From assembly GCA_002011125.2 (NCBI GenBank), contig MTMF02000009.1, forward strand, positions 1,704,989-1,768,988: a stretch of 64,000 nt of DNA, written 5' to 3'. A model generated the notes under the pieces. It was not told where the DNA came from and did not search any database. It worked only from the letters and a program-made list of their open reading frames with translations. Position numbers and translations under genes: made by a program. Positions 45,830 to 62,734 of the stretch are shown here, one piece after another. Source of the DNA: Candidatus Hydrothermarchaeum profundi. GTDB taxonomy: Archaea; Hydrothermarchaeota; Hydrothermarchaeia; Hydrothermarchaeales; Hydrothermarchaeaceae. Numbering within the stretch: position 1 is the first letter of the stretch; every line of letters starts with the position of its first letter.

Positions 45830-45954
45830 ATGACTCCCCTAATCTTATTAGCCTCTAGTAAACTTAAAGCTTGATAACTCAGAGCCTACGATTATCACTA
45901 CTTCTTCCAAAAATTCACCACTATACATAAGATTTTATTTACTTTTAGGTGGAT

Positions 45955-46119
45955 TTATTCCATTCCAACTGGCCCGCCTTCCAAGTATTTCTCTGGGTCT
46001 TCTTCGAACTTCGCCTTACAACTTGGAGCACAGAAGTAGTACATCTTACCTTTATAATATTTGGATATTTTAGCGGTCTTTGGATCAACTTCCATACCGC
46101 ATACAGGATCTATTGCCAA
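45955..46119 (-). CDS. 54-aa YHS/TRASH metal-binding protein; not in ORF track
   Basis: TTG start after GGAGGTGA; MAIDPVCGMEVDPKTAKISKYYKGKMYYFCAPSCKAKFEEDPEKYLEGGPVGME. Confidence 0.9.
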   Translation of the reverse strand: MAIDPVCGMEVDPKTAKISKYYKGKMYYFCAPSCKAKFEEDPEKYLEGGPVGME

Positions 46120-46125
46120 AGCTTT

Positions 46126-46446
46126 TCACCTCCTTATTTCTTCAATTACTTTGATTATTTCTTCTTTGCTGGGAAACGCATCCTGCCTCTCTACTTCTTC
46201 TCCAGCTTTAAAATAAATAAGGGTAGGAGTGCTTGTAACTCTATATCTCTGGGCAACCTCTGCGTATTTCGAGATATCAAGCTTGTAGAACAACACATCC
46301 CCAGAATATTCTTCGTATACCTCCATAACTCTAGGAGTAATAGCCCTACATGGAGCACACCCGGGCACCGTGAACCAAACCACCACAGGCTTATCTGCCT
46401 TCAATACTTTCTCATCAAACTCTTGTCCTGTAATAAACTCCGTTAT
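46126..46446 (-). CDS. thioredoxin (CAPC); probable ATA start at 46446
   Basis: ITEFITGQEFDEKVLKADKPVVVWF..PGCAPC, STPT. Confidence 0.85.
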   Translation of the reverse strand: MTEFITGQEFDEKVLKADKPVVVWFTVPGCAPCRAITPRVMEVYEEYSGDVLFYKLDISKYAEVAQRYRVTSTPTLIYFKAGEEVERQDAFPSKEEIIKVIEEIRR

Positions 46447-47066
46447 ATCATCCTCCCATGAAAAAGCTCTTTGGCTACAAAAAGGGCCTCATCTAATGTC
46501 AGGTAAAGTCCTTCGCTGAAATGCTGCTTATCAGAGAACACATTCTTAGAGCACCTTTCCCTCCCAATACAGTCATCATATATTATTTCAATTAGGACCC
46601 AGAGTTCTTCGGGGGAGGAGCTACCTATTTTCCCCTCCTTGACTTCTATTTCTACCTTCTCTTTGCAATAATCGCAACATGACTTAATACCCGCATCTCT
46701 CTCTACCAAAAGAGGCACAGTTAATGAATCCAAGGCAGAGGTGGCAAAAACTCCTCTACCATCATAAAATACCTCGTACTGCGTAGACATAGCTGAAAAG
46801 GGAGAAGCAGCAGTTATTTCCGCCCCCATAAGCGAGATGAACTCAAATTCATTCAACTTACTAAAGCTTTGTATAACATCGAAAAGTCCTATGCTTAAAG
46901 AATCCATTATTTCTTCTTTTTTGGGCGGTTTACCCTCATCTGAAAACTTTTTAAGTATAAAATTAAGTACCTCTAGGTCGACCTTGTTTAGCTCTCGCAT
47001 TTTTTTGTCTAATTCAGTTACTTCCCTGAGTTTTTTAAGAGCTAATTCAGCCTTCTCGGTAGTCAC
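46443..47066 (-). CDS. MerB (organomercurial lyase)-like protein with catalytic Cys replaced by Ser
   Basis: wHTH N-terminus, A.PFS...T...V..DG, TSALD in place of xCALD, SCCDYC, LTLDEA. Confidence 0.75.
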   Translation of the reverse strand: MTTEKAELALKKLREVTELDKKMRELNKVDLEVLNFILKKFSDEGKPPKKEEIMDSLSIGLFDVIQSFSKLNEFEFISLMGAEITAASPFSAMSTQYEVFYDGRGVFATSALDSLTVPLLVERDAGIKSCCDYCKEKVEIEVKEGKIGSSSPEELWVLIEIIYDDCIGRERCSKNVFSDKQHFSEGLYLTLDEALFVAKELFHGRMI

Positions 47067-47078
47067 CTTAGTCTGCCC

Positions 47079-49484
47079 CTATTTAAAAGTTGGTGTGTAC
47101 CTCTTAAGAAGAAGAGAATTAGTAACCACTGACACAGAACTCATAGCCATGGCCGCAGCAGCAATTGCAGGGTGTAATAAAATACCCCAGAACGGGTAAA
47201 GCGCTCCAGCCGCCACCGGGATCCCTAGAGTGTTATAGAAGAACGCCCAGAAGAGGTTCTGCTTTATTTTAGTTATCGTCTTCTTGCTAAGCTTAATAGC
47301 CTTAACCACATCTCTAAGATCATCTTTTATAAGCACAATACCCCCTGCCTCTATCGCGACATCAGTCCCCGATCCAATGGCGATGCCAATATCAGCCTGA
47401 GCTAAAGCTGGAGCATCATTTATGCCATCACCTACCATGCCGACGAACCTGCCTTCCTCCTGTAACTTTTTAATCTCTCTCGCCTTATCCTCCGGTAATA
47501 CCTCTGCTAGAACCCTCTCTATTCCCAGTTGAGCGGCTATAGCTCTAGCAGTCCTCTCGTTATCCCCGGTAATCATTATAACCTCTATGCCCATTTTCTT
47601 CAACTCACTTACTGCCTCTTTAGAATACTCTTTCAGGGTATCTGCTACCGCTACAATACCTACAGCTTTATTATCAGTTGCAATTAGCATGGCTGTTTTA
47701 CCCTCGCTCTCCAGTCTACTCATCTTCTCCTCTAGATGCTCGAACTCAATGCCGTTGTCTTTAAATAGCTTCCTTGTCCCTAACAGTATACGTTTACCAT
47801 TGTAATTAGCCTCAACTCCATGTCCGGGTATAGCAAAGAATTCTTCAGGATCTTCAACCTCTAGCCCCTTATCTCTTGCTCCCCTAACTATAGCTTCGCC
47901 CAAGGGATGCTCTGAGCCTACCTCTGCGATAGCCGCTAACCTCAACACCTCGTTTTCATCAAACCCATCAATAGATATAACATCTGTAAGAGAGGGCTTT
48001 CCTTTAGTAAGTGTGCCAGTCTTATCAAGTACAATTGTATCCATCTTATATGCGTTCTCCAGCTGCTCGCCTCCTTTGATTAGAATCCCGCTCTCTGCTC
48101 CTTTGCCAGTGCCCACCATAATCGCCGTCGGAGTAGCGAGTCCCAATGCGCATGGACATGCGATAACTAAAACCGCAATCATTGTGGAGAAGGCGAATAT
48201 GAAGTACTTATCCCCAATAAAATACCATGCCAAAAATGTTAGAACCGCTATGCCTATCACCACCGGAACGAAAACCCCTGCGACTTTGTCAGCCAATCTT
48301 TGGATAGGAGCCTTAGTTCCCTGAGCCTCTTCGACCAACCTAATTATCTGCGCTAAGGCCGTATCTGATCCGACCTTTTCAGCCCTAAATTTGAAAGTAC
48401 CAAACTTATTTATCGTAGCTCCTATAACCTTATCTCCCACCTTCTTCTCTACAGGTATTGATTCACCGGTTAACATAGACTCATCAACAGTAGAATGGCC
48501 CTCCACTATGACTCCGTCTACGGGTATTTTCTCACCTGGTCTAACCACGATAATGTCCCCTACCTCCACCTCTTCAACCGGTATTTCCTTTTCAACTCCA
48601 TCTCTTATAACTCTCGCGGTCTTTGCTTGAAGTTCCATAAGCTTTTTTATAGCCTCGCTAGTACGCCCTTTCGCTATGGATTCCAGCATTCTACCCAAAA
48701 GTATGAATGCAATAATGAGGGAGGAGGTCTCATAATATACATGCCCTGGAAATATTCCCGGAAAGAAAGTTACACCAACGCTATAAAAATAAGCAGCCGA
48801 GGTACCCATAGCTATTAAAACATTCATGTCAGCGATCCTATTTCTAAGAGCGATGTAAGAACCCTTATAAAACTGATATCCGGCTATAAACTGAACTGGA
48901 GTAGCTAAAAGAAATTGTATAAAGGGATTTCGGAGTAAGGGGATACTTATTCCGATATAGCTTCCTACGCTCCCTATAAGTATAGGTATTGAGAGTGATA
49001 TCGCTAGAGCAAAGCTTCGCTTTTGTCTACTTATCTCTTCTTCTCTAGCAATCTTCTCAACATCCTCCTCTAAAACCTTAAACCCTCTCTTCTCTAAAGC
49101 TCTTCTAACTATCGTAAAATCTAGGGTAGGTAAGAACTCGACCATGATACTTTGAGCACTTAGATTAGACACAGCCTTTACGACTCCCTCAACACCCATT
49201 GCAGCTTCTTCTATTTTAGCTGCAGATGCTGAGTCTACCATTCCTTCAACCTTGAGCCGGGCTTTCCTAGTGGGTACACTATATCCCACCTCTCTGACCT
49301 TCTCTATTAGCTGTAGGAGATCTACCTTGCCTTCATCGTATTCAACAGTAGCATTTTCAGCACTAAGATTGACATTAGCCGAGCTAACCCCCTCCACCTT
49401 TGAGAGCGCTTTTTCTATAGTTTGAACGCATGTTGCACAATGCATCCCAATTATTGGCAAGATTACCTTTTTCATTTCCATCAC
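47079..49484 (-). CDS. copA: Cu(I)-exporting P1B-1 ATPase
   Basis: [34 protein letters not shown] and MAMSS. Confidence 0.95.
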
Positions 49485-49514
49485 TCAATAATGCAAATTC
49501 TTTCTAAATATGAA

Positions 49515-49619
49515 TAATATAACTTATTATATTACTTAACATCGCTATTTTATATGTTTTATTTACTTTACTGCTCCAAAAGCGAAAGATATTTATTGAA
49601 AAAATAACCATTTTGGAAA
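49515..49619. promoter_or_regulatory. divergent copA/copR control region with palindromes
   Basis: taatataa-ctta-ttatatta at 49515-49534; taaccattttggaaa at 49605-49619. Confidence 0.4.
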
Positions 49620-49632
49620 AAGGTGATGAAGT

Positions 49633-50220
49633 ATGCATCTTGACATGATAGATCTAGAAATAATAAGAATCCTACAATCTAACGCCCGAACCCCTGTCCT
49701 CGAGATCTCTAAGAAGCTTGGACTAAGCAGACCTACTATTAAATCAAGAATCGATAAACTCAGAGAGGAGGGAGTAATTAAAAAATTTACAATTGTAATA
49801 GACCGCGACGCTGTAGTTAAGAACATTCTCCTACTCCTTAGGATGAAGATAGATGACAATAGAATACTAGAATCACTTAAAGACGAGGAAGAGATAATAG
49901 AGATATACGAAACGATGAACGAGAAGAATATAGTATGCAAAGCTGTTGTCAGGGACATCGACGAGCTTAGAGAATTCATGGATAAACTTAACAAGATGGG
50001 GGTTAAAGAAGTGGAGTCTTCCATTGTTCTTAAAACCCTCAAGGAAGAACACGAGGCAGACATAGGGCCTGAGATAGGCATTACTGTTGAATGCGAATAC
50101 TGCGGCAAGGAGATAACAGGCACTCCATATAAGTTTAAAATATACAATAAAGAACATTATCTCTGTTGCCCAGTATGCTTGAAAAGTTATAAGAAAAAAA
50201 TGAGCTACGCAAAAAATTAA
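49633..50220 (+). CDS. copR: copper-responsive regulator (Lrp/AsnC HTH plus TRASH)
   Basis: Lrp HTH, C-terminal CEYC...LCCPVC; divergent from copA. Confidence 0.88.
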   Translation: MHLDMIDLEIIRILQSNARTPVLEISKKLGLSRPTIKSRIDKLREEGVIKKFTIVIDRDAVVKNILLLLRMKIDDNRILESLKDEEEIIEIYETMNEKNIVCKAVVRDIDELREFMDKLNKMGVKEVESSIVLKTLKEEHEADIGPEIGITVECEYCGKEITGTPYKFKIYNKEHYLCCPVCLKSYKKKMSYAKN

Positions 50221-51422
50221 GACTCATGCATCGTAGGCCTAGAATAATTTGACACTCTTAGCTCAGATAGCACTACTCTATTGTCCCATGTCTTTTCTAA
50301 ATTGCCTGGCTGATATACACAGTAAGGGTCTTCAGCAAGATAATCACCTGTTAGGGCATATGCCCTGGACCTACTCCCCCTACAGATATCGTTGAATTCA
50401 CATACCCTACATCGCCCCTTAAGCTTCTCAGGGTTTTGCATATCTTTCAAAATCTTGGAACTCCTGTATATTTCAACTAAGTTTCCATATTTTACATTGC
50501 CAATTCCGATAGGTAAGAAGCTGCTAGGGAACACCTCTCCCCTATTTGAAACGAAAATACCCTTCCCATAGCTCTTATCTTTATGCTTAACAGCTTCATT
50601 CTCTCTAGCATTTGAGGTAGGAAAATAACTTTCCCTCAGCCTTTTTTTCAGGTATCTATAAAGCTTACCATGTTTAATTATCCCTTCATCAACTTCTCCC
50701 TCCTCAATCTTTCTTCTCAGTACTGCTACTCTCCTATAAGGCTCGCTCCCTGCTATCGCGTTTATGGGGATATTCGAGACTTTCATAGCGTCGTATATAA
50801 AGTTGAAAACATCTTCATATTCCTGAGGAGTAAGGGCGTATTCTTCCTTAGCTCTCCCAGTAGGTATCAGCATATATAGATACCATCCAACCGCACCCAA
50901 CTTTTCACTTAAAGACAATATCTCCGGCAATTCCTTAGCATTAAATTTAGACACCGTAGTCATAAGCCGAAATGGTAACTTGATCTCTCGCATATATTTG
51001 ACGGCTTTTACCATAATGTTAAAGGTACCCTTTACCCCTCTGAAAGAGTCATGTAACTCTGCGTTAGGGCCGTCGATACTCATCGCCACTACTTCTACAC
51101 CTGAGTCCTTTAACCTCCTTAAGTTTTCCCGGTGCAAGAGAGGGGTCGTACTTGGAGCAATGGTAACTCTGACTCCTAGGTCTCTGGCATATCTAATGAT
51201 CTTAAAAATATCACTACGTAAAAGGGCATTCCCCCCTGTGATCCTCAAAATTGGGTATTCCCTGCCGAATTCCACCATTTGATCTACTAGCCGATATGCC
51301 TCGGTAGTAGTAAGTTCATCCCTATCTGGGTTCTTTTTTGCCGATGCTTTGCAGTGCTTACACGCTAACCCACAGGCTATAGTGGATTCCCACATTATAG
51401 ATACAGGATTTAAGATTTTCAT
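50217..51422 (-). CDS. radical SAM/SPASM protein, AhbD/NirJ-like
   Basis: WESTIACGLACKHC, TGG, LKGRCRVCEF..ICRGSRSRAYA..GD....DPYC. Confidence 0.85.
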   Translation of the reverse strand: MKILNPVSIMWESTIACGLACKHCKASAKKNPDRDELTTTEAYRLVDQMVEFGREYPILRITGGNALLRSDIFKIIRYARDLGVRVTIAPSTTPLLHRENLRRLKDSGVEVVAMSIDGPNAELHDSFRGVKGTFNIMVKAVKYMREIKLPFRLMTTVSKFNAKELPEILSLSEKLGAVGWYLYMLIPTGRAKEEYALTPQEYEDVFNFIYDAMKVSNIPINAIAGSEPYRRVAVLRRKIEEGEVDEGIIKHGKLYRYLKKRLRESYFPTSNARENEAVKHKDKSYGKGIFVSNRGEVFPSSFLPIGIGNVKYGNLVEIYRSSKILKDMQNPEKLKGRCRVCEFNDICRGSRSRAYALTGDYLAEDPYCVYQPGNLEKTWDNRVVLSELRVSNYSRPTMHES

Positions 51423-51925
51423 CTTCCCATACGCTTTTTATTTTCATTTTCTAAAAGGCCTACCATCTCGAGATACTTTTCTTTATCTTTACTCGCAAAG
51501 GCAACTTCCTTATAATCGCTTATGGACACTTCGATTAGCGATTTTATTTAGCCGAAACTCTGCCTTATTTTGCTAAAGCGAAGTCTTCTAATTGCCTTTT
51601 GAAAAGCCTGTTACTCTCTTCTAATTAGAGAGTCTATATCCCCACATTTACTACAATTGACTTGATATATATCCTTTAAGATTACCTATTTGTAGTGCTA
51701 TTTTTTTCTAATCTATATGACGCTCTTTGCTAAGTTTTTTAAGTGGCAGGAATTTTACTTTGTTTAAATCATTCTCCATCGTAATCGCACATATACCTAG
51801 TGAAAAATAAAACCAATCCCAATTATTTTTAGGTAATAACTTTAATTTAATCTCATCTTCCCTTTTTTTCATAGTTAAATATATACATTTACATTTTAAT
51901 ATAGTTATTGCAAATACATGTTAAA

Positions 51926-52735
51926 TTAATGCATAGATAGGTCTATTATATCAAAAGTTATACCCTCGTCTTCAAGCTTCTTTAATAACTCAGGTATCTC
52001 ATCGTCAGCTCCAACGACTATAGGCGAGATTCCATGATGACTAGCTTCAATTACTGCCTCTTTTGCTCCAAAAAAAGCTTTTGGCCTTTTATTAATATTT
52101 TTTAAGGATATAAGAGCTTCCACTCCAATGGCGCAAGTGAAATTGCTCCTTTTTACTACTTTTTTTAGCTTATCATAGTCTACATTCCTAGACCCCCCCT
52201 CCTCTATCCTGGGTATTCTAAAAATTTTTACTGTACCTTTTTTTAGCTCGATAATTCCTTTTAAAGATTCTACGCCAACATCCTGTCCTTTTTTAGCGGC
52301 ATGAATTGTAGTTCCAGTGGCTTTGGAATCCTTATCACCCGCGTAGAGAAGGCCATTTTCCATCCAAAGATTTACCTTTTGATTTTCTATCAAATCTTGA
52401 GCAGCAATAGCTGTGAACACTCTTACATCGCTAACCACATCTTCCAAAACAAATCTGAGATAGCTCTTTATCTCTTGGGCTCCTTTTATTATCTCTTCAA
52501 CCCCTCTCTGAGTAACTCGGTAGTTTAAAGGTCCTTCAGATAACACCATGCCTTCCTTTAACAGCTGCTTGAAATATTCTGATACCGCCTGAGGCGTTAT
52601 ATTAAGCTTGTCCGCTATATCTGCCTGTCTAACATTAGGTTGATTGGCAGCGATTTCAACCAAGATTTGAAATTTAGTGTTGATCATGCCTTCCAAATTC
52701 CTACGCTTCCTTGACATAAAATTAAATTTATACAA
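51926..52735 (-). CDS. archaeal winged-helix transcriptional regulator (COG1497-like)
   Basis: QILVEIA..QP.VRQ.DIA..L.ITPQAVSEY, EGGSR, GVEAL. Confidence 0.8.
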   Translation of the reverse strand: MYKFNFMSRKRRNLEGMINTKFQILVEIAANQPNVRQADIADKLNITPQAVSEYFKQLLKEGMVLSEGPLNYRVTQRGVEEIIKGAQEIKSYLRFVLEDVVSDVRVFTAIAAQDLIENQKVNLWMENGLLYAGDKDSKATGTTIHAAKKGQDVGVESLKGIIELKKGTVKIFRIPRIEEGGSRNVDYDKLKKVVKRSNFTCAIGVEALISLKNINKRPKAFFGAKEAVIEASHHGISPIVVGADDEIPELLKKLEDEGITFDIIDLSMH

Positions 52736-52870
52736 ATCAATTTAAATAGATTTTCCAGAGAAAAATATATGTAAAATTACGTATTATATAAGACAAAAAT
52801 ACAAAAAGAAGCTAAATTATGCTTTAATAAAGAAATATTGATTATATAGTAAAGTATTATTGAGAAAAAA

Positions 52871-52921
52871 TTTAAATATAACCTGTTTTGTCTCATTCAT
52901 TTTGTGAAAAAATGGAGGTGA
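52871..52921 (+). promoter_or_regulatory. TATA box and RBS of cbpA-cbpB
   Basis: GAGAAAAAA-TTTAAATATA at 52862-52880; GGAGGTGA at 52914-52921. Confidence 0.6.
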
Positions 52922-52926
52922 TTGGA

Positions 52927-53043
52927 TTGAAAACGCAGGAAAGAAATGTTATATCAATTCGACTTGACTGTGCAACTTCAGCCAACGGTCTATCCCACTA
53001 TATAATCTATGGAGACCTTCCAAAAGGTAAAGCTCCACTATAA
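52927..53043 (+). CDS. cbpA: CbpA-like modified-peptide precursor (38 aa); not in ORF track
   Basis: TTG start 5 nt after GGAGGTGA; MKTQERNVISIRLDCATSANGLSHYIIYGDLPKGKAPL with R..C.....GLSHYI; 23 nt before the radical SAM gene. Confidence 0.85.
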   Translation: MKTQERNVISIRLDCATSANGLSHYIIYGDLPKGKAPL

Positions 53044-53066
53044 ATTAACTGAGGTCGGGGAAGATT

Positions 53067-54428
53067 ATGCACTATAATACAGGGAGTAATCCACGAGTAA
53101 CCTTCTGTGATATAGATTCCAATTGGAACCTAGCAATAGACCCAGATACAATGTTCTGGGCCTTAATTTCAAAAAACAAAGATCTAGACGTAGTTCTCAG
53201 TGACGAAGTATTTCCTATGTACGAGAAATACCGAGAAGAACTCGCTAATGAAATGAATAAGTTCAGATTCGAAACCAACCTAAGTGCGGTATATGTTAAC
53301 CCAACCGACAGATGCAATGCAAACTGCACTTACTGCTACCTCCCTAAGAACCATAAGGAAAGAGGCCTTCAGATGAATGGCGAGCAACTTCGAGAAACTA
53401 TGACCAGAATTGAAGAACATTTCAATGAGAACAGGCTTAATGGGAGAAAACCAGTAATAGTATTTCACGGAAGCGAACCATTATTAGTTAAGGACCTCCT
53501 AGAGCAGACGATAGAAGAATTTCGAGATACATTCCACTTCGGCATCCAGAGCAATGCATTAGAGCTGGAGGAAGACGACACAGAATTCATCAGGAGATAC
53601 GGAATAAACATTGGAATATCCCTTGATTCTCATATCCAAGAGATAAACGACTCAGTTCGCAGAGTGGCAGGAAATAGCGGAACCTATGAGAAAGCGGTGA
53701 AAGCAATAGACATGCTAGAAGGGTATGAAGGTCTGAATGTCGTTACAACTATCACAAATCGTAACGTAAAACATCTCCCCGGCCTAGTCGAGTTTCTTTA
53801 TAATAAAAAGGTACCAGCTATACTTATGAATCCTGTCAGGGGCACTCAGAAGTCCGCAAGACAGCTTCGCCCAGAATCAAAAGATTTAACAAAATATTTC
53901 ATCGCTGCAGTAGAAAAGGCATGCGAGCTGTCAAAGAAGGATGGGAGGCAGATAATTATAGGAGACTTCGCTAATATCCTATTAGGAATAGTAGCGCCCC
54001 TCGGCAGAAGATTGATGTGTGATATCACGCCCTGTGGAGGGGGGCGATGTTTCTTTGCAATAACCGCTGATGGACGTATGTTCCCTTGTGGAGAGTTTAT
54101 AGATATGACGGAGTTCTACGCAGGAAATATCTTCAAAACCCCTATATCAGAGGCAATGGAATCAAAAGCTTTTAAGAATGTGAGGTCAAGAATCGTAGAG
54201 AAGATAGAATACTGCAGTACCTGCGCTTTTAGGAATATATGTGGCGCTCCATGTCCCGCAGAAGTTTACTCCGAGAAGGGAGATCTAAATCAGAGATCTC
54301 CTTACTGTGAATTCTATGAAGAACTCATTAGGTATGCGTTTAAAGTGATAGCCGAGGATAAGCTAAAGTATCACTTGAGAGAAGAAGCGCTGAATAGCCT
54401 AGAATACAAATATAGTCTCATAGCATAA
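53067..54428 (+). CDS. cbpB: peptide-modifying radical SAM/SPASM enzyme CbpB
   Basis: IDPDTMFWAL, NPTDRCNANCTYCY, FHGSEPL, LMCDITPCGGGRCF, C..CAFRNICGAPCPAE. Confidence 0.85.
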   Translation: MHYNTGSNPRVTFCDIDSNWNLAIDPDTMFWALISKNKDLDVVLSDEVFPMYEKYREELANEMNKFRFETNLSAVYVNPTDRCNANCTYCYLPKNHKERGLQMNGEQLRETMTRIEEHFNENRLNGRKPVIVFHGSEPLLVKDLLEQTIEEFRDTFHFGIQSNALELEEDDTEFIRRYGINIGISLDSHIQEINDSVRRVAGNSGTYEKAVKAIDMLEGYEGLNVVTTITNRNVKHLPGLVEFLYNKKVPAILMNPVRGTQKSARQLRPESKDLTKYFIAAVEKACELSKKDGRQIIIGDFANILLGIVAPLGRRLMCDITPCGGGRCFFAITADGRMFPCGEFIDMTEFYAGNIFKTPISEAMESKAFKNVRSRIVEKIEYCSTCAFRNICGAPCPAEVYSEKGDLNQRSPYCEFYEELIRYAFKVIAEDKLKYHLREEALNSLEYKYSLIA

Positions 54429-54526
54429 TACCTGTTTGCTAATCTCTGCACTCCTCAGGGAAAACGAAATATTTATATAACAGCACCCAGGCTAATCAAC
54501 ACTATCTAGCGGATGAGGTGATATGC

Positions 54527-54865
54527 TTGGCAAAATATCTTAAAGTAGGCGGCAAGAAACTTGAACTCGACGAAGACGGTTTCTTAGTGGACTGGGAACA
54601 GTGGGATGAAGAGGTTGCAAAGGCTTTCGCTAAGCAAGATGGAATTGAGTTGACTGACGAGCACTGGGAAATTATCCATTTCCTTAGAAAGTACTATCTA
54701 GAGTATAAGATAGCGCCTCCAATTAGAATGCTTGTAAAGGAGGTCAAAAAAGCACTAGGCCCCGAGAAAGGTAATCTAAAATATGTTTATAAGCTTTTCC
54801 CTGGCGGCCCTGCAAAGATGGCTTGCAAATATGCTGGACTACCAAAGCCAACTGGCTGCGTATAA
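54527..54865 (+). CDS. dsrC: DsrC/TusE sulfur carrier with both C-terminal Cys
   Basis: DEDGFL, LTDEHW, FPGGPAKMACKYAGLPKPTGCV; own TATA at about 54472; TTG start after GAGGTGA. Confidence 0.92.
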   Translation: MAKYLKVGGKKLELDEDGFLVDWEQWDEEVAKAFAKQDGIELTDEHWEIIHFLRKYYLEYKIAPPIRMLVKEVKKALGPEKGNLKYVYKLFPGGPAKMACKYAGLPKPTGCV

Positions 54866-54991
54866 AGAATAATATAACTACTTTTTTTTATCTATTTAGA
54901 AATCTATCAAATTAAGCCTAAAAAAATAATTGATTAGGCATATTTTTTATAAGAAAATTATTTATTATCTTTCAATTAGCTTATTTATTAA

Positions 54992-55444
54992 ATGAAAGTT
55001 AAAAAAATTTTGTTGCCATTAGAATCCTCTTTAAAAGCTTCACCAATAGGCCCTGCCTTCGAAATTGCTAAAAAAGGTAATACCGAAATTATAGCTCTCG
55101 ATATAGTGCCAATAAATTCCTCGGCCGGCTGGAATTATAAAGAAATTTTAAAACGTATGAAAAATAAAAAGTCAGAGCCCTTGTTAAATGAGCTTGAAGA
55201 ATGGGGAAAAAGGATAGGTGTAAAAGTAAAGAAGGTTATAGAGTCCGGGTCACCAACTAAAAAGATAATTGAAGTAGCTAAAAGAGAAAAAGTAGATCTT
55301 ATCATAATAGGCGAAACGAAGGGATTCCTTGGAGTAAATCCACATATGTATTTAATAATTAAAAAAGCCTGCTGCCCAGTATTAGTAATTGGAGAAAACA
55401 GCCGCAGAGTACCATGCAAAGCATGGAATATTGAATTCCCATAG
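54992..55444 (+). CDS. universal stress protein
   Basis: KKILLP, GSP..KI...A....VDLIIIG, CPVLVI. Confidence 0.85.
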   Translation: MKVKKILLPLESSLKASPIGPAFEIAKKGNTEIIALDIVPINSSAGWNYKEILKRMKNKKSEPLLNELEEWGKRIGVKVKKVIESGSPTKKIIEVAKREKVDLIIIGETKGFLGVNPHMYLIIKKACCPVLVIGENSRRVPCKAWNIEFP

Positions 55445-55500
55445 ATTAAATGCGGCTACTGCATCTACCTCTGAGAATGCAGCGGTAGACTTTCATAGTT

Positions 55501-55866
55501 TTAAAATTCAGTATCCGCTGAATTAGACTTTGCTTTAACTCTCTCTACTACCCTTAAAGCTCTATCTACGCAATTCTTTATTACCTTAGCGGGAGCAGGT
55601 CCTGGTACGCCTCTAACAGGTATACCCTTATAGAATATGATAATAGTAGGAGGCACATATACCCTCTTTTGTAGAACAAGTTCCCTCTCAGAATCATAAT
55701 CTACATAGACAGATTTTATTCTCCCTTCATATTCTGAGGAAACCTCCTTTAACAACTCCGCAACCTCAACGCAAGAAGGGCTCCAATCTGCCTTAAAAAA
55801 GACAAGTACAGGTATCTCAGATTCGGTTACCTCTTTATCCCAGTTTTCAAAATCAACTTTCCTCAT
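55501..55866 (-). CDS. thioredoxin-like protein, monothiol WSPSC
   Basis: NWDKEV..SEIPVLVFFKADWSPSC, VPPT; ATG 55866 preferred. Confidence 0.8.
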   Translation of the reverse strand: MRKVDFENWDKEVTESEIPVLVFFKADWSPSCVEVAELLKEVSSEYEGRIKSVYVDYDSERELVLQKRVYVPPTIIIFYKGIPVRGVPGPAPAKVIKNCVDRALRVVERVKAKSNSADTEF

Positions 55867-55873
55867 AGTAGTC

Positions 55874-56191
55874 TCAAAACACTGGCTGCTGTTTAGCTCC
55901 AACATAGGCATGACACTTATTACAGTAATCAGCTACCTCATGGCAATTTGCACATATTTCGATATCTACTTTCTTTGTTTCAGGCTCGAATAATTCAGTC
56001 ACCTTAGATGCAGTTTTTACGGTTCCTGTTGTAATACTCCCATGATTTGCCCTATACCAATCTAGCCCTCGCTCAGTATGGTACTTAGGGGGATTAACAT
56101 CCTCAGGCTTAGGCGGTTTCTCTATTATCCCCACACAGCCGCTGACAAGAAAGAAACAGATTATCATAATCAATAGCCTCATCTTCTCCAC
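55874..56191 (-). CDS. small diheme c-type cytochrome lipoprotein, DsrJ-like C-terminus
   Basis: lipobox-like VSGC; CANCH..YCNKCHAY. Confidence 0.75.
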   Translation of the reverse strand: MEKMRLLIMIICFFLVSGCVGIIEKPPKPEDVNPPKYHTERGLDWYRANHGSITTGTVKTASKVTELFEPETKKVDIEICANCHEVADYCNKCHAYVGAKQQPVF

Positions 56192-56192
56192 C

Positions 56193-57608
56193 TCACTTCA
56201 TCACAATCGCCTTCCCAACCAAGTCATGGACCCCGCCTACTTGGACTTCAAGCTTATAGTGCGACATAACTAAGGGAAGCTGGGCTTTATCTATAGCGCA
56301 TGGTGCAGCTAGATAGTTAGCTCCTGTGCTCCTCACTGCTTCAGCTCTGGGCATACCTCCCTTCATCCTGAGCTCCATTATCTCTTCAGTAAGAAGACCT
56401 CCACCGCCGCCGCAACAGAAAGTTTTCTCCTTAATTGTATTATCTGGCATCTCTCTAAAATCATTAACACAGCTTTTTATTATGTACCTCGGTTCTGAGA
56501 TCAGATTTCCTGCCCTTGCCATATTACATGGATCATGCAAAGTTACGATAACATCATCATTCTGACTTTTATCAAGCTTTATCTTGCCTTTTCTAATCTT
56601 ATCAGCAGTGTATTCCAGTATGTTACAATATTTAAAGGGCAAAGGTCCATTCATTTTCTCCATAAACTGCCTCGCTGCTCTCCAGGCATGCCCACACTCT
56701 CCGATTATAACCAGCTTTGCGTCTATCTCCTTTGCCTTGTCAACTATTCTCTTATTTATCCACTCGATGTCGATATAAGATTGAAAAAGACCGAAGTTTG
56801 CTGCCTCACTAGCATATGTGCTCATTGTCCAATCTACCCCCAATGCGTTCATTACTTTCGCCACCCCTATCATAGTATCAGTATTCGTAAAAAGGTCGGC
56901 AGAGGGAGGAACGTATAGGATATCCGCCTTCTCTTTATCCACTGGGATCTCGATATCTATATCTTCCATCTCCTTGACATCTTCTATCAAGAATTCACAG
57001 GTGCTTTTAAATGCTTTATCTGGAATGCCAAGGTTATTGCCAATATCATACACTTTCGCTATGACCTCTGTGATATACTTGGTCGCAAGCCCTAGGTTAG
57101 CTAGTATCTCTCTACCCGCCATAGTTATTTCTGCCTGATCTATACCATAGGGACAAAAAACAGAACAACGCCTGCATTCACTACACTGATAAAAATATTT
57201 GTACCATTCATTTTCGATTATATCATTTGTGAGATCCGACGCTCCCACCAAAGAGCCAAATATCCTGCCGCTGATAGTAAAATATCTCTTGTATACTTTT
57301 CTTAGGAGCTCAGCTCTACCTACGGGCGTATTCTTGGGATCCCCGGTGCCGAGATAATAATGGCATTGCTTAATGCATGCCCCACATCTGACACAAATAT
57401 CTAAATAAAGTTGCAGTGATTTCCGGGTTTTCCTAAGTTCATCAAGCTTCCTTATAGCTACTTCAGGCCTGTGCTCAGGAGGCAACTCGGGGTAGGGTAT
57501 TTTTACTTTGAGCCACTTTATATCCTTCTCCTTTGCTCTGTGCATAATGTAGTTTTCCGCTGCTGCTGGTTGAAATTTTACGTCGTAAATGTTTTTCATT
57601 TCAGCCAT
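56193..57608 (-). CDS. dsrK: DsrK/HmeD Fe-S subunit
   Basis: CVRCGAC..QC, CSECRRCSVFCPYGID, GECGH, HDPCN, CCGGGGG, CAID. Confidence 0.9.
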   Translation of the reverse strand: MAEMKNIYDVKFQPAAAENYIMHRAKEKDIKWLKVKIPYPELPPEHRPEVAIRKLDELRKTRKSLQLYLDICVRCGACIKQCHYYLGTGDPKNTPVGRAELLRKVYKRYFTISGRIFGSLVGASDLTNDIIENEWYKYFYQCSECRRCSVFCPYGIDQAEITMAGREILANLGLATKYITEVIAKVYDIGNNLGIPDKAFKSTCEFLIEDVKEMEDIDIEIPVDKEKADILYVPPSADLFTNTDTMIGVAKVMNALGVDWTMSTYASEAANFGLFQSYIDIEWINKRIVDKAKEIDAKLVIIGECGHAWRAARQFMEKMNGPLPFKYCNILEYTADKIRKGKIKLDKSQNDDVIVTLHDPCNMARAGNLISEPRYIIKSCVNDFREMPDNTIKEKTFCCGGGGGLLTEEIMELRMKGGMPRAEAVRSTGANYLAAPCAIDKAQLPLVMSHYKLEVQVGGVHDLVGKAIVMK

Positions 57609-57614
57609 GAGTTC

Positions 57615-58340
57615 TCACTCCTCTACCTCAATACTATGGGAGCCCTTCTCGAAGTAGTGAATCCTAGTAGGGCTGAAGAACACGCCTCCAAGATGCATTA
57701 TCTTGCTGAAGGGTAAAATCATGAGAAGCAACTGCACTAAAAAGAAGTGAGTGAGAAACCAGAAACTATCAGGTATAACGGAAGGATTCGGCTGCAAGGT
57801 TATTAGTCCCATTATCATTGTCTTCACATCAAATACGTAGACTCTGGAAAAAAACTTTAGAATTAGCCCAGTGCTTGCTATGGAAATCAGGAGTAGGAGG
57901 GCAAAGTAATCTGCGAAGTTAGATATGAATCTGAGATCAGCAAAAACTAGACGCCGTAATAATAGGTATAAGAGAGGAACTAGGATTAGTAGGCCAGCGT
58001 ATATCCCCACTGTTTGAAAAGCCATGACCCATGATGGAACAGGATACAAAAAATATCTTAAATGTCGCAATAGGATTAGTAAGAAGCATATATGGAATAT
58101 CCATGACCCCGCCCACAGAATATAATTGCCAGGAAACCTCAAAAGGCTTCTAAACAATGCAACATCTAATAAAACTCTCGCTATGGATTTTCCAGGCGAA
58201 TCCTGCCCAGGGAAAACAGGGATCTTTACCGGGGAGCGTATCGTCGCCCATGCGGCAAGCCTGTAAATAAATCCTACTGTGAATATGGTAATAGTGATAT
58301 AAGGAAGATAAACCCCAATAAAACTAGCAATAACACCCAT
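57615..58340 (-). CDS. dsrM: DsrM/HmeC cytochrome b subunit (NarI family)
   Basis: FRSL, IFH...RHLRYF..PVP, THFFL, PFSKIMH.GG.FFSPTR. Confidence 0.9.
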   Translation of the reverse strand: MGVIASFIGVYLPYITITIFTVGFIYRLAAWATIRSPVKIPVFPGQDSPGKSIARVLLDVALFRSLLRFPGNYILWAGSWIFHICFLLILLRHLRYFLYPVPSWVMAFQTVGIYAGLLILVPLLYLLLRRLVFADLRFISNFADYFALLLLISIASTGLILKFFSRVYVFDVKTMIMGLITLQPNPSVIPDSFWFLTHFFLVQLLLMILPFSKIMHLGGVFFSPTRIHYFEKGSHSIEVEE

Positions 58341-58419
58341 TAAATCACCTCCTCAGTTCCCATATATGGTTATGAATATAAAATATTTTCATTTACAAGT
58401 TGGTGTGGGGCTTTGTGCA

Positions 58420-58593
58420 CTACCACCAGCAGATGACTTTTTCGTAGTCGAAGATCTTATCGATAAGAGCATCGTAATCAGGAACGCCCTCATATAGCTT
58501 GAATACTTCCACTTCATTTCCCTGTGAATGCACATGTATAATCTTCTTCACAGTTTCATCGGCAGGTGATTTCAGGATTTCTAATACCTTCAT
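58420..58593 (-). CDS. 57-aa DsrH/TusB-like protein; not in ORF track
   Basis: ATG after GAGGTGA; MKVLEILKSPADETVKKIIHVHSQGNEVEVFKLYEGVPDYDALIDKIFDYEKVICWW. Confidence 0.8.
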   Translation of the reverse strand: MKVLEILKSPADETVKKIIHVHSQGNEVEVFKLYEGVPDYDALIDKIFDYEKVICWW

Positions 58594-58602
58594 TTCTTCA
58601 CC

Positions 58603-58893
58603 TCAAAAAGGTACGATAAAATCGTTTTCAAGCATTTTCTTAGCCATGTCCTCTAGCGAGATTATCTCCGTAAACTCGTCAGCGTTCTTCTCATTGTTGG
58701 AGTAAACCTTTCCATCAGAATCAACTATCCACTCTAAATTCTCCAAGATATACGGATTCTTTTTTAGCTCCACATTTATGATAAAGAGGTTCACTGTATG
58801 CCCTTCCAAGAGTAATCCAAGCGCAGACCTAGTGAATTCGCTCTGCCTATATCTGTCAGAGTCCCTTAAAATAAATGCTATTTTTCTCTCCAT
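58603..58893 (-). CDS. DsrF-like protein (DsrE fold, no Cys)
   Basis: KIAFILR, R.ALGL....H.V.LF, ISLEDMA..M.END.IVPF. Confidence 0.7.
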   Translation of the reverse strand: MERKIAFILRDSDRYRQSEFTRSALGLLLEGHTVNLFIINVELKKNPYILENLEWIVDSDGKVYSNNEKNADEFTEIISLEDMAKKMLENDFIVPF

Positions 58894-58894
58894 C

Positions 58895-59206
58895 TTAAAA
58901 CACCACGTATCTATCTACTTCCGCGGCTATTTCCGCGTTATTATCCTGATTACCATGGACTACACCATCAATAGTGGGCTTATAGGTGTTATGCAAGTCA
59001 AAGCCTTGATAGGTTTTATTGCATAGGCTTATCTCAGCGCCGGATTTGAGCAACTCCTCAAACTCAGGATCCTGAGTAAGAAATACAGAATTTGCGGTGA
59101 AAAAAATCTTCACTTCTTTACCTTTAGCCACCGCTGCCTTAGTTAACCCAATAACATGATTCAGATGTTTATCTGAACTCACAAGTATCCCAAGCTTTTC
59201 TCCTAT
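58895..59206 (-). CDS. DsrE-like sulfurtransferase; probable ATA start at 59206
   Basis: KLGILV, A...GKEV.IFFT..SV, SLCNKT (conserved Cys), DRYVVF. Confidence 0.8.
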   Translation of the reverse strand: MGEKLGILVSSDKHLNHVIGLTKAAVAKGKEVKIFFTANSVFLTQDPEFEELLKSGAEISLCNKTYQGFDLHNTYKPTIDGVVHGNQDNNAEIAAEVDRYVVF

Positions 59207-59223
59207 CTAGACCACCTCCTATT

Positions 59224-59841
59224 TTATTCGCCTTTCCTTTCAAGATACGCATACGCTAGGATGAAAATTAAGGCTTGAAAAGCGCCTATATACACGCCCT
59301 TTATCTTAAAGAGATATACTGCGAGAGGATTTGCAAGAGGAAACTCCCCTAACCAAATTAGTCCATATGGTGAACCAAGCAAAGAAGACTCTACACCTCC
59401 TGCTAGCTTTGCTGCTAACCATGGTATCGTATAAAGTTGCGCTCCAATTGCTACTCCGACTAATATCATAAAGGCGGTAATCAGATAATTAAGGCTTCCT
59501 TCGCCTATTCTTGCGAAACTGCTTATTACGCAACCCCCCGCAATAGCCATACCTATGCCGAAGATAACGCCTCCAACAACACTATACCAGCCAGCAGGCA
59601 TATTAGTGGGTCTTAATACTCCAACCGTCATAAAGAACGTATAGAAGAAACTTGTGGTACCAAGTATCATAAGAGTCATCTTTAGATTTCTATCTATCCT
59701 AAAAAGGATGTAGTCCCGTATTGCACCAGTCATGCAGAACCTGGATCTCTGAACTAGAAAGCCTAGTATAAACCCGAAGAATGCCGCAGAGATATAATGG
59801 GCCGGATTTGACATTATCTCCGCTATTGCACTCATTTTCAC
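59224..59841 (-). CDS. YeeE/YedE-family sulfur-compound transporter, half 2
   Basis: QRSRFCM, FGIGMAIAGGC, R.GEG. Confidence 0.85.
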   Translation of the reverse strand: MKMSAIAEIMSNPAHYISAAFFGFILGFLVQRSRFCMTGAIRDYILFRIDRNLKMTLMILGTTSFFYTFFMTVGVLRPTNMPAGWYSVVGGVIFGIGMAIAGGCVISSFARIGEGSLNYLITAFMILVGVAIGAQLYTIPWLAAKLAGGVESSLLGSPYGLIWLGEFPLANPLAVYLFKIKGVYIGAFQALIFILAYAYLERKGE

Positions 59842-60359
59842 AGCCCCATTTTTTTCTCGTAATATTTAGCCCCTATATATGTGCCTATAATTAATCCAAT
59901 CCCGGCGAGATAGGCTCCCAGAGCTATCTGGGGGAGGGAGTTTAAAAAAGTTCCCACGTTACAAGTCGTAATAAAAACGATTCCAATTCCCATTAATATC
60001 CCCCCCACTATTGACTCTGGAAGGCTGGACTTATCTACTCTTATTCCAAACTCCTCTGACAATAAAGCTGCCACAAAGCTTCCTAACACAAAGAAGAGGA
60101 GAGTGACCGCTACATCCAAATTTCCAGCAAAAATACTCCAGTGTGGATTTCTCAATACAAATTTTTCACCGATAAACGTAGTTAGAATAGTCTGATCAAC
60201 CCATCTAAGAGCGCTAGCAAAGGCCCATGCCTTTCCATAGCCTAATGTTATGCCTGTTTCGGTTTTGAAGGGTATAACTAAAAAAACTAGGACAATGCTG
60301 ATGAGTACGCCTCCAACCTTGTAGTCAAGTGGTTCCTTAAATAATGAGCGTAATCCCAT
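59838..60359 (-). CDS. YeeE/YedE-family sulfur-compound transporter, half 1
   Basis: GIT, LGSF.AAL, GG.LMG.G.....CNVG. Confidence 0.8.
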   Translation of the reverse strand: MGLRSLFKEPLDYKVGGVLISIVLVFLVIPFKTETGITLGYGKAWAFASALRWVDQTILTTFIGEKFVLRNPHWSIFAGNLDVAVTLLFFVLGSFVAALLSEEFGIRVDKSSLPESIVGGILMGIGIVFITTCNVGTFLNSLPQIALGAYLAGIGLIIGTYIGAKYYEKKMGL

Positions 60360-60576
60360 CCTAGTCCTCCTCCATTAAATTACGAGTGTAAGGAATGTGT
60401 GTATTTAAGGTTTTCTATTAGTCTTGGTTGTGTAAATTTTTTAATATCCAACCTAAATAATTAATATTCTACTTTAATTAGAAAAAATTTAAATAATCCA
60501 AAAAAAAATAAAATTATACCTTCTAAATTAAGGCTTGTATAAATTATGTACATGAAAAAAAGTAGGTGTGTAAATT

Positions 60577-61134
60577 ATGGATGAGAAGGATTGCACCATA
60601 TACGAAATGCTAAATGAGGATGGAAGGAAAAAAATCGTAGAGATAGCAAAGGTTATTGGATTCTCGCCTCCTTCGACAAAAGAACGTGTAGAGAAGTTGA
60701 TTAAAAATAAAGATATAAAAGTTAAGGCTCTTTTAAACGTTCAAAAGAAAAAATGGAAGACCGCTGTCTGTAATATACAAGTTTCAAGCATGGAAGAAGC
60801 CCTTAAGCTAGCAGACACTTTCAAGAATTGTCCTAGAGTGATTTTCGCAACAACTATGACAGGAGCTTATAATCTTATACTAATATTAGTAGCTAAAGAT
60901 ACTGCTGTCCTTGAATCTGCTATTGAAAACGGCATCCGACCTGTAAGCTCAATAAAAAAACTGGACATCTCTATAGGAGAAGCCCCAATTTTACCGGGGT
61001 TTCTTGATATAAGAATAAACCCTGTTAGTAAAGAGCCTCCCTGCGGCGAAAAATCCTGTTCAGAGTGCTATCTCTACGAAAGGAAATGTGATGGATGTCC
61101 GGCAACAATATATTGGAAAGGCCTTAGATCTTGA
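60577..61134 (+). CDS. Lrp/AsnC regulator with Cys-rich C-terminal extension
   Basis: Lrp HTH, CPRV......G.YN, PCGEKSCSECYLYERKCDGCP. Confidence 0.85.
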   Translation: MDEKDCTIYEMLNEDGRKKIVEIAKVIGFSPPSTKERVEKLIKNKDIKVKALLNVQKKKWKTAVCNIQVSSMEEALKLADTFKNCPRVIFATTMTGAYNLILILVAKDTAVLESAIENGIRPVSSIKKLDISIGEAPILPGFLDIRINPVSKEPPCGEKSCSECYLYERKCDGCPATIYWKGLRS

Positions 61135-61194
61135 GCCAAGATAATATTTAAATAAAGATTTTTCCTAAAGTATTGAGGTAAAGGAGGATTAGCT

Positions 61195-61452
61195 ATGCCG
61201 GAGGTTGAAATTCCGAAGATTGGGAAAGTTAATGTTTCTAGAGTAGTAGACTGCACAGGACAGGTGTGCCCAAAGCCACAACTAGAAGCCAAAAAGGCGT
61301 GTAAAGAGATGGTTGAGGGAGAGATAGTGGAAATGCTTATCACTAACCCTGCCTCAATTGAGGCGGTACCTAAAATTATCACTAAGTCTGGTTGTTCTGT
61401 ATTAGGAACAATAAAAGACGGAAATACATGGAAACTGTACTTTAAGAAGTAG
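61195..61452 (+). CDS. tusA: TusA-family sulfur carrier
   Basis: VDCTGQVCPKP. Confidence 0.88.
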   Translation: MPEVEIPKIGKVNVSRVVDCTGQVCPKPQLEAKKACKEMVEGEIVEMLITNPASIEAVPKIITKSGCSVLGTIKDGNTWKLYFKK

Positions 61453-62197
61453 AAACCTCCTTCCAAATATGCTCGAAATAGTTCCTGTACAGCTTGATGC
61501 ACCCAGGGTTTCTATTATATAAAGCAAAGTAGTAGTTAGCTGGATCCTCAGACGCCAGTATAAGCTCCTTATCATCCACTATGACAAAACGAGAGTGATC
61601 ATGCTCGAAGTCCTTGATCTCTGCGTTAAGCTTTCTTAATTTTTCCTTACATTCCTCATCAAACATTCCCATGGCTTTTATTTTAACTCCTGAGTTACTG
61701 GCTTTTCTCAGAGAAGCTTCTATCTCTCTAGTTGTTATTGGCTGTATACCTACTACATATACCTCTTTCTCCGCTCTTTCTATCATCTCGATAAGTTTTT
61801 TTCTGACGTTTTCTTGTCCCCGTATAGTCCAAATCATATCTTCCATAGATTCAGGACTCTCTTTTTCTTCATAGATAGGCCCTATCTTGGAGATTAGATC
61901 TTCTACCACTTTTATCCGGATATCACATTCTCTTTTCAAAACTTTTCGCGGATCAACTGCCCTATATCTTTTAGGTCTGCCAGGTTGAGATTCGACAAAA
62001 CCCATTTCCTCTAGATTATCTAAGATATCGTACTCTCGTGAGTAGGGTATACCGGCAGATTCTCTTATTTCTTTAACGGTTGAAGGCCCTCTAGTTACTA
62101 GGGCGATATACGTTTTTGCTTCATATTCTGTTAAGTCAAAGAGCTTGAGTATATCGACCCACCGCTGATCTATACCAAATTTTTTACTCATTTTCAA
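61442..62197 (-). CDS. TrmB-family transcriptional regulator
   Basis: LTEYEAKTY.AL, IP.SR.YDIL..L, GRPKRY, PLD-like C-terminus. Confidence 0.9.
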   Translation of the reverse strand: MKMSKKFGIDQRWVDILKLFDLTEYEAKTYIALVTRGPSTVKEIRESAGIPYSREYDILDNLEEMGFVESQPGRPKRYRAVDPRKVLKRECDIRIKVVEDLISKIGPIYEEKESPESMEDMIWTIRGQENVRKKLIEMIERAEKEVYVVGIQPITTREIEASLRKASNSGVKIKAMGMFDEECKEKLRKLNAEIKDFEHDHSRFVIVDDKELILASEDPANYYFALYNRNPGCIKLYRNYFEHIWKEVSTS

Positions 62198-62723: not shown

Positions 62724-62734
62724 GGAGGTTTAAA

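Follow-up and report, generated by a model that had tools for sequence, protein, structure and literature searches.

The CbpA and CbpB families (TIGR04164 and TIGR04163) are a bioinformatically defined pair of a small precursor peptide and a radical S-adenosylmethionine (SAM)/SPASM maturase, and a cobalt or cobalamin gene neighbourhood is a contextual feature of the TIGR04163 family description. The families nearest to CbpB all act on or through a Cys (CteB, the sulfatase maturase anSME, TigE and ChlB; also PapB). CteB, the thioether-forming maturase of SCIFF (5wgg, 5why; TIGR03974), joins a radical SAM core to a SPASM domain with two auxiliary clusters and to an N-terminal peptide-binding domain. 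The sulfatase maturase anSME (4k36-4k39; TIGR03942) acts on a single Cys or Ser of a peptide segment, in the sulfatase motif C/S-x-P/A-x-R, and PapB (NF047865) joins Cys by thioethers to side-chain carbons of a residue a little further downstream, its PapA-type substrates having repeated C-x3-D/E motifs. Here we analyse a window of 64,000 nucleotides (nt), the whole stretch from position 1,704,989 to 1,768,988 of contig MTMF02000009.1 of Candidatus Hydrothermarchaeum profundi, in which a gene for a 38-residue CbpA-like peptide stands directly before a gene for CbpB. Judged by motif, synteny and profile score, the identification as a CbpA-like/CbpB pair is correct, and the two genes very probably form a cassette in which the enzyme modifies the peptide. 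The pair shares with its family an enzyme above the cut-off, a peptide directly upstream with a C-x5-G-L-S/T-H-Y/F core, and a host that by its gene content makes cobamides; it differs in that the host is an archaeon, that there is no riboswitch and no cob gene within about 8 kb, and that a divergent winged helix-turn-helix (wHTH)/DUF7839 regulator is present instead. The pair and its signals, in window coordinates, are:

52862-52879, plus strand: archaeal promoter, a purine-rich transcription factor B recognition element (BRE) GAGAAAAAA and a TATA box TTTAAATAT, read from the sequence
52914-52921, plus strand: Shine-Dalgarno (SD) element GGAGGTGA, 5 nt 5' of the cbpA TTG, read from the sequence
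52927..53043, plus strand: cbpA-like precursor peptide gene, 38 residues, from TTG 52927 to TAA 53041-53043
53051..53055, plus strand: ribosome-binding site GAGGT of cbpB, 11 nt before its ATG, read from the sequence
53067..54428, plus strand: cbpB, radical SAM/SPASM peptide maturase of 453 residues (TIGR04163)

The assignment of the enzyme is clear. On the NCBIfam model TIGR04163 (rSAM_cobopep), of which it covers positions 10-425 out of 428, it scored 545.4 bits (cut-off 375; E 8.1e-164). No other protein of the source genome (2.19 Mb, 19 contigs) exceeds the cut-off. The original prediction of a CbpA/CbpB pair is borne out in that a CbpA-like peptide is accompanied by a bona fide CbpB. Pfam recognised a Radical_SAM domain (64.3 bits) and a SPASM domain (35.5 bits). 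In an alignment of 39 sequences the CX3CX2C motif, C83/C87/C90, is invariant, as are eight C-terminal Cys residues for auxiliary clusters (C318, C323, C341, C383, C386, C392, C396 and C414). An AlphaFold model of high confidence (predicted local distance difference test, pLDDT, 89.3; predicted TM-score, pTM, 0.91) places a three-stranded sheet and a long helix, residues 12-69, ahead of the radical SAM core.

The peptide gene was easily overlooked, being absent from the track of open reading frames (ORFs) and showing only when the minimum ORF length is lowered, with an open frame then running over 52888..53043. As described from the sequence beforehand, it carries the motif R12-x2-C15-x5-G21-L-S-H-Y-I26, has a TATA box and a ribosome-binding site of its own, and directly precedes the SPASM enzyme, whose gene starts on the same strand after a gap of 23 nt; its C-terminal end reads YGDLPKGKAPL. 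The in-frame TTG at 52888 is unlikely as a start because the position of the BRE and TATA box puts the expected transcript start near 52903, and the ATG at 52912, which has no SD element, is also unlikely to be used. Related cbpA genes have GAGGTGAT or GGAGGTAA as SD at equal spacing and start with ATG, and the element GAG(A/G)AAAA-N1-2-(C/T)TTAAATAT is found upstream of cbpA in other loci of the same order as well (L009, L010, L011, L014, L016, L019 and L020). When the 43-residue in-frame version from ATG 52912 was searched against a collection of 5.8 billion proteins, no candidate sharing three words was returned, a result that says little because small ORFs are rarely called.

Conservation of the peptide upstream of CbpB orthologs is extensive. 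CbpB was found in 13 of the 41 genomes searched, the source genome included, at 14 loci, and in 13 of these same-order loci a peptide ORF with the same core lies directly upstream, the 14th being partly masked by N. A species-representative genome collection (one genome per species) gave 596 CbpB relatives; in the best 80 loci, which were examined for the peptide, it was present in 72, present as a variant in 1 (L087), cut by a contig end or N in 5, and not found within 700 nt in 2. The arrangement is kept across archaea and at least eight bacterial phyla, as named in the record titles. Across the 29-codon core, read in 46 different DNA versions, differences are distributed 4561 : 2460 : 16633 over codon positions 1 : 2 : 3, and differing codon pairs are synonymous in 13169 cases vs 5419 non-synonymous ones; read at the codon level, the small ORF is a real gene with its frame under purifying selection. 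In 39 aligned peptides Cys15, Gly21, Leu22 and His24 are invariant, with S/T at 23 and Y/F at 25 throughout, so that the core can be written as a Cys, 5-7 residues and G-L-S/T-H-Y/F, a pattern to which the source peptide conforms. Within each subtype the peptide is conserved well beyond this invariant block, tail included:

Type A, the source's own order: …R-x-E-C-[KR]-Y-x-G-A-G-L-T-H-Y-…-[ED]-S-P-F
Type B, mostly Nitrospirota, Omnitrophota and Planctomycetota: …S-Y-[HR]-[LM]-K-C-A-K-T-A-N-G-L-[ST]-H-[FY]-V-M-Y-G-D-V-P-K-K-K-M-P-L
Type B2: a short form of B
Type C: records titled Methanophagales
Type D, metagenomes: …Y-R-R-R-C-…-G-T-G-L-S-H-Y-I-L-L-…

By its residues the source peptide plainly belongs to type B, the subtype that dominates the bacterial loci recovered. 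Its closest relative is the peptide of a metagenome locus, L106, which also supplied the best full-length CbpB relative of the metagenome search, about 57-58% identical. The C-terminal extension noted in the original prediction is an extension only relative to the 25-position TIGR04164 profile; since the peptide is of type B, it is the normal tail of that subtype (…C-x5-GL[ST]H[YF]-x2-YGD-x-PK-x-K-x-P-L).

To place CbpB among characterised maturases, we compared it with solved structures and family models. By sequence profile the closest structures are CteB (5wgg, E 1.2e-32) and anSME (4k36, E 2e-30), and by fold again CteB (5why, E 3.5e-21, query TM-score (TMq) 0.69) and anSME (4k36, E 1.1e-18), followed by TigE, ChlB, SkfB and SuiB; the next-best NCBIfam match after the CbpB model is the PapB ranthipeptide maturase NF047865. 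CbpB nevertheless scores below the membership cut-offs of all three families (SCIFF maturase TIGR03974, 94.8 vs 425; PapB, 136.6 vs 340; anSME TIGR03942, 114.7 vs 349.45), and it resembles these enzymes in fold and, by analogy, probably in chemistry while standing outside their families. With CteB, its best solved match on both counts at an identity of about 19%, it shares the radical SAM core, a SPASM domain that has two auxiliary clusters, and a domain at the N-terminus, although the latter is in the model one three-stranded sheet and one long helix and may fall short of a full precursor-peptide recognition element (RRE). SCIFF has six Cys and CbpA one, and the two substrates are alike in having the Cys N-terminal, in SCIFF to the acceptor residue. 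For anSME, the second-best structural and sequence match, the likeness lies in the single Cys or Ser that is acted on, and the differences are that it is not accompanied by a dedicated small peptide gene and that the sulfatase motif is absent from CbpA. The repeated C-x3-D/E motifs of PapA-type substrates are absent from CbpA as well.

We next consider where cbpAB is found in other genomes. The neighbours of the 80 loci were clustered and the clusters named with NCBIfam, 71 of the loci being without an archaeal title and 9 carrying one. In 68 of the 71, cob, cbi or btu genes lie within 7 kb, which agrees with the earlier statement that CbpA and CbpB usually lie near cobalt/cobalamin genes. The gene most often found directly upstream is cbiO, and directly downstream a gene for a precorrin methyltransferase, each in 22 loci; cobT is found directly downstream of cbpB in 8 loci. 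A cobalamin riboswitch (RF00174) is present in 12 of the 16 non-archaeal loci scanned, in 4 of them, of type D, directly before cbpA. A bacterial-type cobT directly follows cbpB in two Methanophagales-type loci (L023, L031) and in partial metagenome relatives (L107, L129, L133); three short partial metagenome matches, at 67-73% identity, are followed, where examined, by cobT and not by dsrC. The archaeal-titled loci have a cob gene within 7 kb in only 4 of 9 cases. No protease, exporter or further tailoring enzyme is conserved with cbpAB in the neighbour clustering of the 80 loci.

Two further observations were made on these loci. A Dph6-like PP-loop ATP pyrophosphatase is encoded in 10 of them (L026-L030, L042, L045, L055 and others), directly after cbpB in 5 with Planctomycetota and Omnitrophota titles. 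In the Methanophagales-type L023, L031, L102 and L103, a CATTAC-N4-5-GTAATG-like palindrome lies just 5' of the cbpA TATA box, and beyond the palindrome L023, L024 and L031 have a divergent gene for a protein of 317-337 residues, with a ribbon-helix-helix head in L023 and L031 and, in L023, a weak AIR-synthase-like match (22.5 bits, under the cut-off). At these loci the same cassette would be under a regulator protein of another kind.

We found no literature on CbpA/CbpB, TIGR04163/4 or DUF7839 (supplements lying outside the search), in line with the earlier remark that no characterised product is known. A term search of PMC13692751 and PMC10114670 shows no mention of the family, and a paper on cobT riboswitches, repressing ones and an activating one (PMC10653944), does not mention cbpAB ("radical SAM" and "peptide" each occur 0 times). 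The riboswitch control of cobT described there (PMC10653944) is matched by bacterial cbpAB, which sits in riboswitch-bearing cob loci with cobT as a frequent neighbour of cbpB, and differs from the present locus, which has no riboswitch and where regulation would be by a protein.

The source genome itself is predicted to make cobamides. On the same contig it encodes cbiM/Q/O, cobT, cbiH and cobD at 1.323-1.336 Mb and cobQ, cbiB and cobS at 29-33 kb, with cbiA and cobA elsewhere; cbpAB lies at 1.758 Mb, its nearest cob genes being about 420 kb off. The pair is flanked, in the gene order originally reported, by a divergent wHTH regulator and by dsrC. The window holds no riboswitch, the sole match being a weak small RNA below its gathering score. 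In place of one, the following are found upstream of cbpA:

51926..52735, minus strand: divergent regulator, an N-terminal MarR-type winged helix being followed by a central beta domain and, at the C-terminus, by DUF7839 (Pfam DUF7839 96.6 bits, HTH_24 35.1 bits)
52837..52863, no strand assigned: two ATTGA half-sites 22 bp apart, a weak candidate operator directly upstream of the BRE and TATA box

The true start of the regulator is probably an in-frame ATG 16 codons inside the ORF, because the database version has 253 residues. Its AlphaFold model (pLDDT 80.3, pTM 0.51) has a MarR-type head, and residues 148-251 match tetrapyrrole methylases in their N-terminal half over 96-100 aligned residues (3hh1, Z 9.6; CbiL 2qbu/2e0k/8xj3, Z 9.2-9.4; SUMT 1v9a, Z 9.4; CysG, Z 9.1); the Foldseek matches are weak. 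Full-length homologues occur in 12 of 35 genomes of the order. One, 63% identical, is divergent from a type-A cbpA at an unrelated place in its genome (G015), and others are divergent from ribBA (G009, 52%) or cobT (G018, 47%; G027, 42%); within the order, four other genera thus have the regulator beside cbpAB, cobT or ribBA, an arrangement not seen elsewhere. Loci with a homologue include L135:10634-11422, L147, L148 and L150. As for the candidate operator, TCAA-N6-TTGA palindromes at 22-bp spacing occupy the equivalent place in L009, L011 and L016, with a single one in L020, and AATCAA/TTGATT occurs 13 times in the 2280 nt upstream of cbpA from 12 related archaeal loci, where shuffling gave a mean of 2.6 and none of 2000 shuffles reached 13. 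A relaxed half-site pattern together with a TATA box occurs once in the source contig (C9), at cbpA, the site from which the pattern was derived. We regard an operator at the cbpA promoter as a lead suggested by these repeats.

Taken together, we propose the following. From its strong BRE/TATA promoter the locus would yield the 38-residue peptide and, 23 nt further, the maturase. The N-terminal sheet-helix domain of CbpB would bind the short conserved stretch before the Cys (…I-S-I-R-L-D-C…), SAM would be cleaved at the C83/C87/C90 cluster, and the 5'-deoxyadenosyl radical would modify the peptide at or through its single invariant Cys. We place the modification at Cys15 because CteB and anSME act on or through Cys and CbpA has one, which is invariant. 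The likeliest product would carry a single thioether within the peptide, joining Cys15 to one of the residues in the invariant G-L-S/T-H-Y/F block, with oxidation of the Cys, as by a sulfatase maturase, as the second possibility; a Cys thioether and metal binding by the product, both raised in the original prediction, are plausible by analogy. Since the peptide is conserved over its whole length and the pair is accompanied by no conserved protease or exporter, the product would probably stay inside the cell as a small modified protein. The function we infer is in cobalt or cobamide metabolism, as the bacterial relatives indicate, exerted in trans to cob genes some 420 kb or more away and with no role for the neighbouring dsrC. 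As a whole, this self-contained, protein-regulated cassette with the chemistry, fate and cobamide role just given is our best explanation and a reasonably probable one; that the function in this archaeon is cobamide-related is in itself something we believe only slightly more than we doubt.

Several observations weigh against this explanation. On TIGR04164 (cobo_pep, CbpA) the source peptide falls short of the cut-off of 35, its residues 8-26 matching positions 1-19 of the 25-position profile with 21 bits (E 1.7e-4), and for that reason we name it CbpA-like by motif and synteny and not a TIGR04164 member; of the two TIGRFAM models on which the pair was scored, that for the enzyme accepts its candidate and that for the peptide does not. 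The cut-off is, on the other hand, missed by all 22 peptides scored, which come from the window and from loci L009-L122, precede clear CbpB genes and represent five subtypes (best 31.1 bits, 2 without a hit), and because of this we judge that the curated model is too narrow and that the sub-threshold score is typical. At about 4.5 kb in L087, an Omnitrophota-titled record, the peptide upstream of CbpB has Gly in place of the invariant Cys and two Cys a few residues upstream; the variant may be real or an assembly error and, if real, argues against the Cys as the obligatory site. With respect to function, none of 16 cob/cbi/btu gene clusters is represented in positions 45001-62000 of the window, so that the pair does lie outside its usual cobalamin context, as had been remarked, although it is not peculiar in this, most same-order relatives being equally detached. 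At 12 same-order loci with wider flanks the neighbours are mostly housekeeping genes (tRNA synthetases, ATP synthase, EamA and the like), an exception being a NicO-type transporter at one locus; at another, a partly masked frame upstream of cbpA resembles CobT in its motif. Because there is no cob gene near the pair here or near most same-order pairs, the cobamide function is carried over from bacteria. The regulator may be a general one, given that in three genomes from two genera of the same order (G024, G026, G032) it adjoins dapB and other unrelated genes, that all 61 of 61 genomes of another archaeal order have a single copy of it (33-42% identity), placed in 29 of 30 loci behind the same gene (DHH/RecJ-like in G038), and that its family numbers at least 301 proteins among methanogens and their relatives. 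The TCAA-N6-TTGA motif is absent before the cob operons of the source genome, bar one match about 270 nt before cbiH. Finally, no oligo-T run lies between cbpB and dsrC, the first T8 being found after dsrC at 54882-54889, and because of this read-through from cbpB into dsrC is possible.

A more specific version of the proposal would give the regulator a central part. In this order cbpAB, freed from cob operons, would be placed together with cobT and ribBA under a regulator with a half-tetrapyrrole-methylase sensor, a protein counterpart of the B12 riboswitch that would sense a corrin or tetrapyrrole intermediate or SAM. The product of CbpA would be a micro-protein, cross-linked through its Cys and staying in the cell, that is needed to handle cobalt or corrinoids when cobamide assembly is in its final steps. 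We know of no cobalamin riboswitch in archaea. In this detailed form the proposal is doubtful.

Of the competing explanations, the one that survives best retains the link to cobamides and changes the fate of the peptide. CbpA could be a sacrificial scaffold like PqqA or the mycofactocin precursor, its cross-linked residues being cut out as a small molecule for cobamide assembly, for instance for lower-ligand or nucleotide-loop chemistry. SPASM enzymes include PqqE and MftC, the invariant block holds a His and a Tyr/Phe, cobT is a recurrent direct neighbour (the 8 downstream loci and the archaeal ones), and regulator homologues stand beside cobT or ribBA; against it, the pair has no conserved peptidase or further tailoring enzyme, and conservation of the peptide reaches well beyond the invariant block to the tail within each subtype. 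The Dph6-like gene follows cbpB in only five loci. We consider the scaffold unlikely.

The location of the pair next to dsrC gave rise to the suggestion, made in the original prediction, that the product serves sulfur respiration. The genes concerned are:

50217-51422, minus strand: TIGR04053 radical SAM/SPASM gene, AhbD-like (405 bits, cut-off 395)
54527 (TTG start), plus strand: dsrC, 99 nt downstream of cbpB
54527-58340 and 59224-63211: sulfur cluster, with DsrC (both C-terminal Cys), a Usp gene, thioredoxin, DsrK-like, DsrM-like, a split YeeE/YedE and DsrE-like
55874-56191: lipoprotein-like ORF of 105 residues with two CxxCH motifs
59224-60359: YeeE/YedE, split into two ORFs

A modified peptide recruited to dissimilatory sulfur metabolism, in partnership with DsrC/DsrMK and for instance as a thiol or metal carrier, would fit a dsrC on the same strand with no oligo-T terminator in between, the DsrK, DsrM, thioredoxin, YeeE/YedE and DsrE-like genes that follow, and a genome that encodes DsrA/B, with dsrAB a megabase off (C9:741986-744147) and a second DsrAB-like pair. 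The comparative evidence points the other way. DsrC was found at 0 of 126 other CbpB loci, and in 10 of 10 relatives with both genes cbpB and dsrC lie on different contigs. The phyletic patterns are uncoupled, in that DsrC is present in 23 of 40 relatives, 13 of the DsrC-positive genomes being without CbpB and 2 of 12 CbpB-positive ones giving no DsrC match. At the locus itself dsrC has a BRE/TATA-like element of its own at about 54462-54482, with its own SD and TTG start at 54527. In two genomes of another family (G012, G020) a TIGR04053 homologue, 70-72% identical, and dsrC stand 1.3 kb from each other, and the interval lacks both regulator and cbpAB, holding in G012 one unrelated gene of 388 residues; here the interval is 3.1 kb and is filled by the regulator and cbpAB. 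Because the TIGR04053-dsrC pair stands without them in these genomes, regulator, cbpA and cbpB look inserted as a module, and the simplest reading of the gene orders is that they arrived as one. The adjacency to dsrC thus looks accidental, and a role in sulfur respiration, which the loci of relatives do not support, is very improbable.

How the pair came to this genome was addressed by placing its enzyme in a tree of 112 CbpB sequences. The relatives from its order all group in a single clade (Shimodaira-Hasegawa-like approximate likelihood ratio test, SH-aLRT, 100), and the source CbpB falls outside this type-A clade, weakly (83) with Methanophagales and bacterial clades; an approximately unbiased (AU) test did not reject a sister position to the clade of its own order (p 0.58), and the G+C content of cbpAB is like that of neighbouring genes (0.36-0.42). 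The pair may have come by horizontal transfer from bacteria, as the free tree suggests, although neither the AU test nor the unremarkable G+C requires it. That the pair is an exported antimicrobial of the ribosomally synthesised, post-translationally modified kind, a sactipeptide- or ranthipeptide-like bacteriocin, is suggested by the nearest characterised relatives of the enzyme, which mature sacti- and ranthipeptides, and is scarcely credible for a peptide with no exporter, leader peptidase or immunity gene here or conserved elsewhere, with a core that, unlike those of bacteriocins, is nearly identical across phyla, and with relatives in operons under B12 riboswitches. Equally hard to credit is a transferred cassette of no current use to this archaeon, for although the peptide is of the bacterial-dominant subtype, unlike the type A of its own order, and the enzyme leaves the type-A clade in the free tree, both ORFs are intact, all catalytic residues are kept, promoter and SD are strong, the base composition is that of the neighbours and the AU test allows a sister relation to the order's own clade.

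The remaining features of the neighbourhood, beyond the TIGR04053 gene, whose protein is the only one here to score on the PqqE model (100.7 bits), are:

41753-42142, minus strand: PIN-domain gene
42734-44473, minus strand: AbiEii/AbiEi toxin-antitoxin pair
46443-47066, minus strand: MerB-like protein
47079-49484, minus strand: heavy-metal P-type ATPase with two HMA domains
49633-50220, plus strand: Lrp/AsnC regulator with a TRASH metal-binding domain

The earlier statement that no transporter or peptidase is adjacent holds in the sense that none is dedicated to the pair, and needs amending in that the P-type ATPase and the YeeE/YedE genes are nearby; neither protein was matched at any of 126 other CbpB loci. 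A scan for bacterial sigma-70 promoters and terminators was set aside, the host being an archaeon.

By the comparisons above, the pair adds a new member, archaeal and standing alone, to a catalogued family without characterisation in print, and CbpA/CbpB is among the few gene pairs that are recurrently embedded in B12 operons without a known role. All 22 peptides tested are missed by TIGR04164, so that such peptides fall under the cut-off used for naming in annotation. As a stand-alone two-gene unit far from the cob genes, the present pair offers a clean heterologous test, with two genes and a single substrate of 38 residues. In archaea the riboswitch may be replaced by a protein regulator that has a tetrapyrrole-methylase-like domain. 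Should the product prove to be a chaperone for cobalt or corrinoids, a gap in anaerobic cobamide synthesis would be filled; otherwise the pair would be an ordinary member of a catalogued family.

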